Shown: piece after piece, positions 40,692 to 55,128 of the stretch | Layout of the letters: each line of letters starts with the position of its first letter | Numbering within the stretch: the stretch's first letter is position 1 | Origin: an uncultured Dehalococcoidales bacterium | GTDB lineage: Bacteria > Chloroflexota > Dehalococcoidia > GIF9 > AB-539-J10 | Length of the DNA stretch: 63,013 nucleotides | Assembly (NCBI GenBank): GCA_964435965.1 | Contig: CAYTBB010000002.1 | Coordinates: 1 to 63,013, forward strand | Reading direction: 5' to 3' | Position numbers and translations under genes: made by a program | The notes under the pieces: generated by a model | Seen by the model: the letters and a program-made list of their open reading frames with translations, nothing else | Database searches by the model: none | What the model was told of the DNA's origin: nothing

Positions 40692-40979
40692 TTATTTCCT
40701 TTCCTGCACGGTTACTTTAGCTCTAGTAACATGCCCTCTAAATGTACGAGTAGGCACAAACTCAGCCAACTTATGCCCCACCATATTCTCAGTGATAAAA
40801 ATGGGCACGTGCTTCCTGCCATTATGCACCGCAATTGTGTGCCCTATCATCTGCGGCAAAATAGTAGAGGCACGAGACCAGGTCTTTATCACTGCTTTCT
40901 CCCCTGAACTATTGAGCGTCTCTATCCTCTTAAGTAATTTAGCATCACAATAGGGACCCTTTTTAAGCGACCGTGACAT
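40692..40979 (-). CDS. rpsS: 30S ribosomal protein S19
   Basis: [12 protein letters not shown].. and [29 protein letters not shown]. The start was trimmed. Confidence 0.92.
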
Positions 40980-40980
40980 T

Positions 40981-41799
40981 CTATTTCCTCCGCTTAACAA
41001 TCATTTTGTCTGATACCTTACGGCGACGCGTCTTATGGCCTAAGGCTGGCTTCCCCCAAGGTGTTTTGGGAGGCATCCCTCGTGGAGCTCTGCCTTCACC
41101 ACCCCCATGAGGATGATCTCGAGGGCTCATAGCAGATCCTCGAACTGAAGGACGTATACCCAACCACCGGTTACATCCAGCTTTCCCTAATCTTATATTC
41201 TTGTGGTCAATATTGCCTATCTGGCCAATAGTAGCCCAGCATTTATGGTGAAATTTGCGCAATTCTCCTGAAGGGAGTCTAAGTAAAACATAATTATCTT
41301 CCTTACTCATAATTTGAGCCGCACTTCCAGCACTGTGAACAAGCTGCCCGCCTTTACCGGGCTCAAACTCAACATTATGAACTAGAGTGCCCACGGGGAT
41401 TAAGCCCAGTGGCAAGGCATTGCCAGACTTTATCTCAACCTCATCCCCTGCCTTTATAGTATCGCCTATCTCAAGACCCAAAGGGGCAAGGATATAGCGT
41501 TTTTCCCCATCAACATAGTGAATTAAAGCAATTCGAGCTAACCTGTTAGGGTCATATTCAATAGAGGCTACCTTTCCAGGGATACCAATCTTATCTCTCT
41601 TAAAATCGATAAGACGAAGTTTGCGCTTACTTCCCCCACCTCGATGACGCACTGTTATCACACCGCGATTATTGCGTCCCGCCTTCCTCTTCAATGATAC
41701 AAGCAAGGACCTCTCAGGAGCCACCTTGCTTAGCTCCTCAAAAGTGGCACTAACCTTCCCTCTCCTGCTTGGAGAAGTTGGCTTATAAGTCTTCAACAT
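40981..41799 (-). CDS. rplB: 50S ribosomal protein L2
   Basis: [14 protein letters not shown].., RHRGGG and [12 protein letters not shown]. Confidence 0.93.
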
Positions 41800-41822
41800 T
41801 ACAGATCATCTCCAATTCTTCC

Positions 41823-41885
41823 TTACGGATGCCTTCTTTGCCAACGAGTCTTCTTAAGAAGCTTCTTATGTTGATGCTTCGACAT
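41823..41885 (-). CDS. 20-aa highly basic micro-ORF in the rplW-rplB gap, a possible bS22-like small ribosomal protein
   Basis: Hand translation gives MSKHQHKKLLKKTRWQRRHP. GGAG lies 10 nt upstream of the ATG. The ORF sits in an atypical 193-nt gap inside the S10 operon. It resembles, from memory, the C-terminal part of actinobacterial bS22. Confidence 0.45.
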   Translation of the reverse strand: MSKHQHKKLLKKTRWQRRHP

Positions 41886-41992
41886 CTTTTTCTTTCTCCA
41901 CTTAACAACTGAGCCCAATAGGTAACCTCCCGTCACTCACCAGATATTAGCCTTCATCATATCAGTTTTCAGCTAATTGCTGACTGCTCCTA

Positions 41993-42277
41993 TTAAACAC
42001 CTTCAAAAAAGGTGATTTTATTTTCCGGCTCTAAGCTAACTATCGCTTTCTTCCAAGATGGGCTTGTCACTTCTCGCCTACCCATTCTCTTCGTCTTACC
42101 TGAAACAGTTATTATATTAACCTTAACTACCTTCACCTTAAAAGCTTTCTCCACTGCCTCTTTAATCTGAGGCTTAGTAGCTTCCTTAGCCACCTCAAGG
42201 ACATATTTATTCCCTTCCTTAAGCAAGGTAGCTTTCTCCGTAATTAAAGGACGACGCAACACCTCATAAAGATGCAT
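41993..42277 (-). CDS. rplW: 50S ribosomal protein L23
   Basis: ..LRRPLITEKAT.L... Position between rplD and rplB. Confidence 0.92.
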   Translation of the reverse strand: MHLYEVLRRPLITEKATLLKEGNKYVLEVAKEATKPQIKEAVEKAFKVKVVKVNIITVSGKTKRMGRREVTSPSWKKAIVSLEPENKITFFEGV

Positions 42278-55051: not shown

Positions 55052-55128
55052 CGGGGCGTAGCGCAGTGTGGTAGCGCGCAGCGTTCGGGACGCTGAGGTC
55101 GGAGGTTCAAGTCCTCTCGCCCCGACCA
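55052..55128 (+). tRNA. tRNA-Pro (anticodon CGG), CCA encoded
   Basis: Hand fold. Acceptor CGGGGCG/CGCCCCG, D arm GCGC/GCGC, anticodon arm CAGCG-TTCGGGA-CGCTG, variable AGGTC, T arm GGAGG-TTCAAGT-CCTCT, then ACCA. Confidence 0.9.

Follow-up and report, generated by a model that had tools for sequence, protein, structure and literature searches.

What fills the 193 nt that part rplW from rplB (41800-41992, between the rplW stop codon TAA at 41993-41995 and the rplB start codon ATG at 41799) in the S10 operon of an uncultured Dehalococcoidales bacterium? In the window, by which we mean the whole stretch of 63,013 nt that was analysed, the ribosomal protein genes around this gap follow one another, by their NCBIfam equivalogs, as S10, L3, L4, L23, L2, S19 and L22, which is the canonical S10-operon order, and the two genes bordering the gap match equivalogs of their own (NF004363 for rplW, 114.3 bits vs a cutoff of 81; TIGR01171 for rplB, 414.6 bits vs 174.5). 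The gap is unusually long, as the first-pass annotation had pointed out: among 80 species-level related loci, collected via the L2 protein, those without the ORF described below mostly have only 2-50 nt between the two genes. Judging from sequence comparison, positions 41823-41918 very probably constitute a genuine, translated gene for the 30S ribosomal protein bS22, which fills the gap and would be transcribed within the S10 operon. The features of the locus are listed in Table 1.

Table 1. Coordinates and strand of the features in and around the rplW-rplB gap, in window positions
Feature	Coordinates	Strand	Remarks
rplW (50S ribosomal protein L23/uL23)	41993..42277	-	94 aa; upstream of bS22
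Spacer, rplW stop to bS22 start	41919..41992	-	74 nt; contains the bS22 Shine-Dalgarno sequence
Shine-Dalgarno sequence GGAGG	41926..41930	-	7 nt upstream of the TTG start at 41918
Probable bS22 gene (30S ribosomal protein bS22, COX24_C/mS38-type)	41823..41918	-	TTG start, 31 codons + TAA
20-codon micro-ORF of the first-pass annotation	41823..41885	-	C-terminal 20 codons of bS22
14-nt palindrome TAAGAAGCTTCTTA	41855..41868	-	codons (ca)T AAG AAG CTT CTT A(ag) = H-K-K-L-L-K
Spacer, bS22 stop to rplB start	41800..41822	-	23 nt; GGAG at 41810-41813
rplB (50S ribosomal protein L2/uL2)	40981..41799	-	272 aa; downstream of bS22

The 31-aa product, MGSVVKWRKKKMSKHQHKKLLKKTRWQRRHP, of ~3.9 kDa (minus fMet processing), is highly basic, with 9 Lys, 4 Arg and 3 His (K or R at 13 of its 31 positions), and scores 63.8 bits (cutoff 34; E 1.1e-17) against the bS22 equivalog NF047430 of NCBIfam, covering profile positions 1-30 of 31 and starting at the TTG codon. 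It also matches the mS38 C-terminal domain of Pfam, COX24_C (PF08213), with 35.2 bits vs a gathering score of 23, so that both models of the AURKAIP1/COX24_C type, with which a search had been recommended, respond above their cutoffs; precomputed PF08213 matches are present on all database homologues of the peptide. Nothing comparable turned up elsewhere in the 63-kb window, where the next best match has 7 bits. In a phmmer comparison with all PDB chains, the best matches are the bS22 proteins of Cutibacterium and Mycobacterium ribosomes (8crx_X, E 5.7e-6; the 5o5j/5xyu/5zeb group, E 1.3e-5), aligned from chain residue 1. The mycobacterial bS22 sequence that the first-pass annotation had cited is therefore essentially right, the PDB chains being identical at 12 of 20 positions over the micro-ORF, yet the homology reaches 11 residues further towards the N-terminus, with 19 of 29 identical positions over the full gene (the MGSV N-terminus, Met12-Ser-Lys, His17, KLL and TR-QRR). 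The proposal of a bS22 homologue embedded in the S10 operon is thus borne out by the two profile matches, by the PDB bS22 chains and by 26 relatives.

The extent of the gene is another matter, since it had been given as 20 codons. The micro-ORF does exist in the sequence, as does its translation: an ATG at 41885 opens a frame that closes with the TAA at 41823-41825 and encodes MSKHQHKKLLKKTRWQRRHP, and a GGAG lies 10 nt upstream, at 41896-41899. If these were the true start and ribosome-binding site, the product would be a 20-aa peptide, and the 20-mer does pass the NF047430 cutoff by itself, if barely, with 35.5 bits vs the 63.8 of the 31-codon form. We nevertheless regard such a short product as highly improbable, because the 11 codons before the ATG (MGSVVKWRKKK) show protein-level conservation in 26 of 26 relatives, the solved bS22 chains begin with MGSV and include the residues preceding Met12, and the public gene calls use the longer form; moreover, Met12 is replaced by Ile in L017, L020, L022 and L023, and those genomes therefore have no ATG at this point. 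The ATG at 41885 is an internal codon for a conserved residue, aligned with Met12 of mycobacterial bS22, and with the real start at TTG 41918 the GGAG becomes part of the gene itself, within the codons of K-W-R-K.

The reading frame remains open as far upstream as 41936, where a GTG could give a 37-aa product. This candidate start was rejected: a TGA stands directly before it, no Shine-Dalgarno sequence accompanies it, the six additional residues are unconserved, the 37-aa form is missing from the protein collection, and in L001 bS22 begins directly after the rplW stop. The perfect 14-nt palindrome noted earlier within the ORF is present too, but it carries no significance of its own: it is a codon by-product that arises because AAG (Lys) and CTT (Leu) are reverse complements of each other. 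As a functional site it can be discarded, being disrupted in most relatives by synonymous changes (AAA, CTC, CTG, TTG).

An HMM search of all six-frame ORFs in the 80 related loci recovered bS22 between rplW and rplB in 26 of them (L001-L023, L027, L049 and L062), with scores of 44-75 bits; no bS22 ORF was found at this site in the remaining loci of the set. Together with the window, the 26 relatives form a set of 27 sequences, 25 of which are 31 codons long. Their start codon occupies one identical position, with ATG in 17 and TTG in 10 sequences; in 14 relatives the ATG and the rplW stop are merged into an overlapping TAATG, in one the two codons abut, and a separate GAGG or GGAGG precedes each TTG start by 6-9 nt. 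The contrast between synonymous and non-synonymous change, proposed at the outset as a check, is pronounced: over 26 distinct sequences, the Nei-Gojobori method yields a pS of 0.73 and a pN of 0.099 (pN/pS 0.135) in frame, and pN/pS values of 1.7 and 1.5 in the shifted frames. Diversity amounts to 0.40 at codon position 3, and to 0.14 and 0.11 at positions 1 and 2, respectively, and neither frameshifts nor stops were seen in the ORF over pS = 0.73. The pN/pS ratio, the codon-position diversity and the shared start and length all point to a translated bS22 gene under purifying selection, and the in-frame conservation excludes ATG 41885 and GTG 41936 as its start.

The first-pass annotation had offered a second reading, with the gap as a regulatory leader for rplB and the genes that follow it. 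Such a cis-regulatory RNA, be it a leader or an attenuator, would make the ORF incidental. The appeal of this reading lies in the unusual length of the gap and in the fact that autoregulatory RNA elements are frequent in ribosomal protein operons. We consider it very unlikely, given that no Rfam family reaches its gathering score in the gap (the sole permissive match being a snoRNA model, E 0.19), that the predicted fold of the 196-nt gap RNA is no more stable than that of shuffled sequence (z = -0.15), that promoter-like and terminator-like matches in the gap occur at chance level only, that the substitutions follow a codon pattern, and that the non-coding parts of the gap are conserved neither in length nor in sequence, even in close relatives. 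On the chance-level matches, the fold and the Rfam result, an internal promoter, terminator or leader in the gap was likewise rejected. Finally, AT-rich sequence readily yields short K/R-rich ORFs, but the supposition that this one arose by chance, or is a pseudogene in decay, within an A-rich, lysine-rich spacer retains next to no probability and, on sequence grounds, appears effectively refuted by its constant length and uninterrupted frame over so much synonymous change, by an NF047430 score far above cutoff and by the lack of a comparable match elsewhere in the 63-kb window.

With the bS22 gene in place, the remainder of the gap consists of two spacers. The shorter one, between bS22 and rplB, measures 13-55 nt in the relatives and contains a GGAG-like motif in each. 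The longer one, 41919-41992, is absent from L001 and L142 (0 nt), is taken up by 89 nt of unrelated AT-rich sequence in L002 and L141, and has a near-identical counterpart of 73-74 nt in L143-L146. Contigs of other sequencing runs carry other sequence in place of exactly these positions, with joints at 41918 and 41992/41993, and homology between strains ends precisely at the bS22 TTG (41918) and at the rplW stop (41993). Direct coupling to rplW is the likely ancestral state, and later inserts would have accompanied the switch to an independent Shine-Dalgarno sequence and a TTG start. Between strains, the point where the rplW stop meets the bS22 start is a hotspot of indels: closely related populations have spacers of 0, ~29, 73-74, 89 and 139 nt in exactly this slot. 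ATG starts mostly go together with direct rplW coupling, and TTG starts with an inserted spacer that bears its own Shine-Dalgarno sequence.

Transcription of bS22 together with rplB or rplW is backed by RNA contigs, which we take as supporting evidence only, as they are strandless, low-depth assemblies with possible DNA content. A 239-nt contig from a marine-sediment metatranscriptome is 100% identical to 41675-41913, a span that takes in the greater part of bS22, the 23-nt spacer and the beginning of rplB. In a second RNA-Seq run, from a population that is ~94% identical, one contig extends across 41511-41906, and another carries the first part of bS22 (41877-41918) and the last part of rplW (41993-42049) on either side of a different, 139-nt spacer.

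Compared with bS22 proteins from other taxa, the window protein is of the Actinomycetota-like, mS38-like sequence type. It shares the NCBIfam equivalog and the Pfam family with the Actinomycetota proteins (M. smegmatis MSMEG_0945, M. tuberculosis Rv0550B and Cutibacterium acnes; 5O5J, 5XYU, 8CRX), which are likewise highly basic and of the same length class, with 33 aa vs 31 aa in the window. Trp7 and Trp26 are a hallmark of the Dehalococcoidia-type bS22, unlike that of Actinomycetota. To our knowledge, mycobacterial bS22 has no tie to the S10 operon. Its gene is a separate locus (MSMEG_0945/Rv0550B; PMC7797042), whereas that of the window lies between rplW and rplB. The bS22 proteins of Borrelia burgdorferi (bb0822) and of the Bacteroidota F. 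johnsoniae (Fjoh_1533) and P. gingivalis are likewise tiny, basic and helical and occupy the same 16S pocket, but they were named from structure and have diverged further in sequence; chains from F. johnsoniae or Borrelia were missing from the PDB sequence matches, even at E up to 10. The Borrelia gene resembles that of the window in its non-ATG start (GUG vs TTG) and was formerly unannotated (PMC10618245). In that study standard MS did not reveal the Borrelia protein; trypsin would destroy the window peptide. Among eukaryotic counterparts, the C-terminal ~30 residues of mitochondrial mS38 (AURKAIP1/yeast Cox24) match the same Pfam domain (human mS38, E 0.009), although mS38, at ~200 aa, has an N-terminal extension, unlike the 31-aa window protein. 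The single helix of eL41 (24-25 aa) has no detectable sequence match to the window protein; mS38 and eL41 fill an equivalent rRNA pocket (PMC10618245, PMC7797042).

We then consider where else the gene resides. The homologue search, for which the query was P0013, a 43-aa over-extended database call of the bS22 gene, reached 13 close clusters. Stand-alone bS22 genes occur in other Dehalococcoidia and Chloroflexota (...KMLKKTRWQRRHG/K type), Thermodesulfobacteriota, Acidimicrobiia and 'Nitrospirae'; their products are 73-90% identical to the window protein and go by the same NCBI names, but their neighbourhoods are varied and non-ribosomal: upstream of smc in the 'Nitrospirae' MAGs, and elsewhere upstream of rpiB, near proA/proB, or between a nitroreductase gene and holB. 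Hence bS22 is widespread, and only its position is special to the clade. The range given in the first-pass annotation, Actinobacteria and Bacteroidetes, was too narrow, since it has to be extended by a Borrelia structure (PMC10618245) as well as by the Dehalococcoidia, Thermodesulfobacteriota, Acidimicrobiia and 'Nitrospirae' MAGs.

The operon-embedded arrangement is confined to a much smaller circle. A scan of metagenome contigs yielded 54 bS22 loci, of which 19 display the order L23-bS22-L2, all with an L2 at least 68% identical to that of the window; in the examined flanks of the other 35, neither L23 nor L2 was found. By L2, which is 93% identical, the nearest public records are MAGs of Dehalococcoidia and Chloroflexi. 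A neighbour-joining tree of 93 L2 proteins unites 39 of 40 loci with operon-embedded bS22 in one clade, with no exceptions inside it; the fortieth, L027, is placed outside the main clade, and Fitch parsimony counts two changes. On balance, we lean towards a scenario in which bS22 moved into the S10 operon apparently once, in one Dehalococcoidia clade, and became coupled to rplW via TAATG, which would suggest constitutive, in-step synthesis; sister lineages have the stand-alone gene, and in some strains the coupling may later have been broken by inserts, with the Shine-Dalgarno sequence and TTG taking over.

Long rplW-rplB gaps of ~120-190 nt are also found in sister Dehalococcoidales without bS22 at this site (L028:2804-2998, L043:2874-2998 and L065:2868-2998). 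They contain GC-rich inverted repeats, e.g. gaaggggcaaagccccttc, which resemble small repeat or hairpin elements more than they do coding sequence.

What the protein may do can be gathered from its homologues. Ribosome structures from Mycobacterium, Flavobacterium and Borrelia show bS22 as a bent, basic helix lodged in a pocket formed by 16S h2, h27, h44 and h45, from which it contacts 23S H68/H70 at the subunit interface (PMC10618245, bioRxiv 10.1101/2023.03.31.535098); it adjoins the decoding centre and the aminoglycoside-binding site (PMC10618245, PMC7797042, bioRxiv 10.1101/2023.03.31.535098). The M. smegmatis protein is non-essential, and its Lys16 affects the kanamycin-binding site in h44 (PMC7797042); the Borrelia gene, for its part, has zero transposon insertions (PMC10618245). 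In the window, the place of M. smegmatis Lys16, a reported h44 contact, is taken by Gln16 (codon 41871-41873), and the residue varies among Q, R, K and H across the clade, so that an h44 contact of the Lys16 type may differ here.

On this reading, bS22 of the window would be transcribed as part of an S10 operon reading rpsJ-rplC-rplD-rplW-bS22-rplB-rpsS-rplV and so on, and its translation would begin at TTG 41918, 7 nt after the GGAGG. The overlap of its ATG with the rplW stop indicates that bS22 is translationally coupled to rplW in most relatives; in the window lineage the two genes are parted by the strain-variable 74-nt insert, and bS22 has its own Shine-Dalgarno sequence and a TTG start. 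Its place in the S10 operon and the coupling suggest expression in step with, and at a dosage equal to, that of the core ribosomal proteins. The resulting basic helical peptide, if it behaves like its homologues, would be present in the 30S subunit, inserted in the 16S h2/h27/h44/h45 pocket by the decoding centre.

The gene cannot be called an unannotated ribosomal component, as had been suggested at first. NCBI nr contains the exact 31-aa peptide, with Dehalococcoidia MAGs as its source, and on seven contigs from NCBI assemblies bS22 is called between Ribosomal_L23 and Ribosomal_L2 with identical boundaries, including the TTG start. Its NCBI name is 'AURKAIP1/COX24 domain-containing protein' or, in newer records of cluster mates, '30S ribosomal protein bS22 [Dehalococcoidia bacterium]'. 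Since these records already place the exact peptide at the same position, the gene counts as known as far as annotation goes. Published reports describe bS22 from Actinobacteria, Bacteroidetes and Borrelia (PMC10618245, PMC7797042, bioRxiv 10.1101/2023.03.31.535098), and in the searchable literature we found neither a link between bS22 and Chloroflexota nor a description of a bS22 gene within the S10 operon. Its clade-specific position in that operon is apparently a small, undescribed observation on gene order.

Genes of this kind are easily missed in annotation, because they have ~30 codons and often a non-ATG start, as in Borrelia. A reading of the raw sequence can recover a bS22-type gene, and current NCBI pipelines already catch the Dehalococcoidia form. 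The insertion marks one Dehalococcoidia clade cleanly by its synteny, and the position in the S10 operon argues for bS22 as a core, co-regulated ribosomal component there; it leaves the established picture of ribosomes unaltered.

Several minor observations concern database entries and the rest of the window. Among the oddities P0030, P0015 and P0099, a Dehalococcoidia-type bS22 is found on a 2.2-kb contig labelled 'candidate division TA06', which is probably mis-binned. One source labels the 31-aa peptide 'large subunit ribosomal protein L2', and a 496-aa Rhizobium protein has been placed in the bS22 90% cluster, probably as a clustering artefact. No rRNA, including 16S rRNA, was found in the 63-kb window, and its sole Rfam matches at gathering score are two tRNA genes on the + strand (61-134 and 55052-55125). 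The rpsS (S19) gene, when delimited mechanically as an ORF, runs from a TTG start over 40692-41000 and overlaps rplB by 20 nt; the S19 family alignment begins at residue 8, and public S19 calls are mostly 95 aa long. The real rpsS start is probably the ATG at 40979, 1 nt past the rplB stop.
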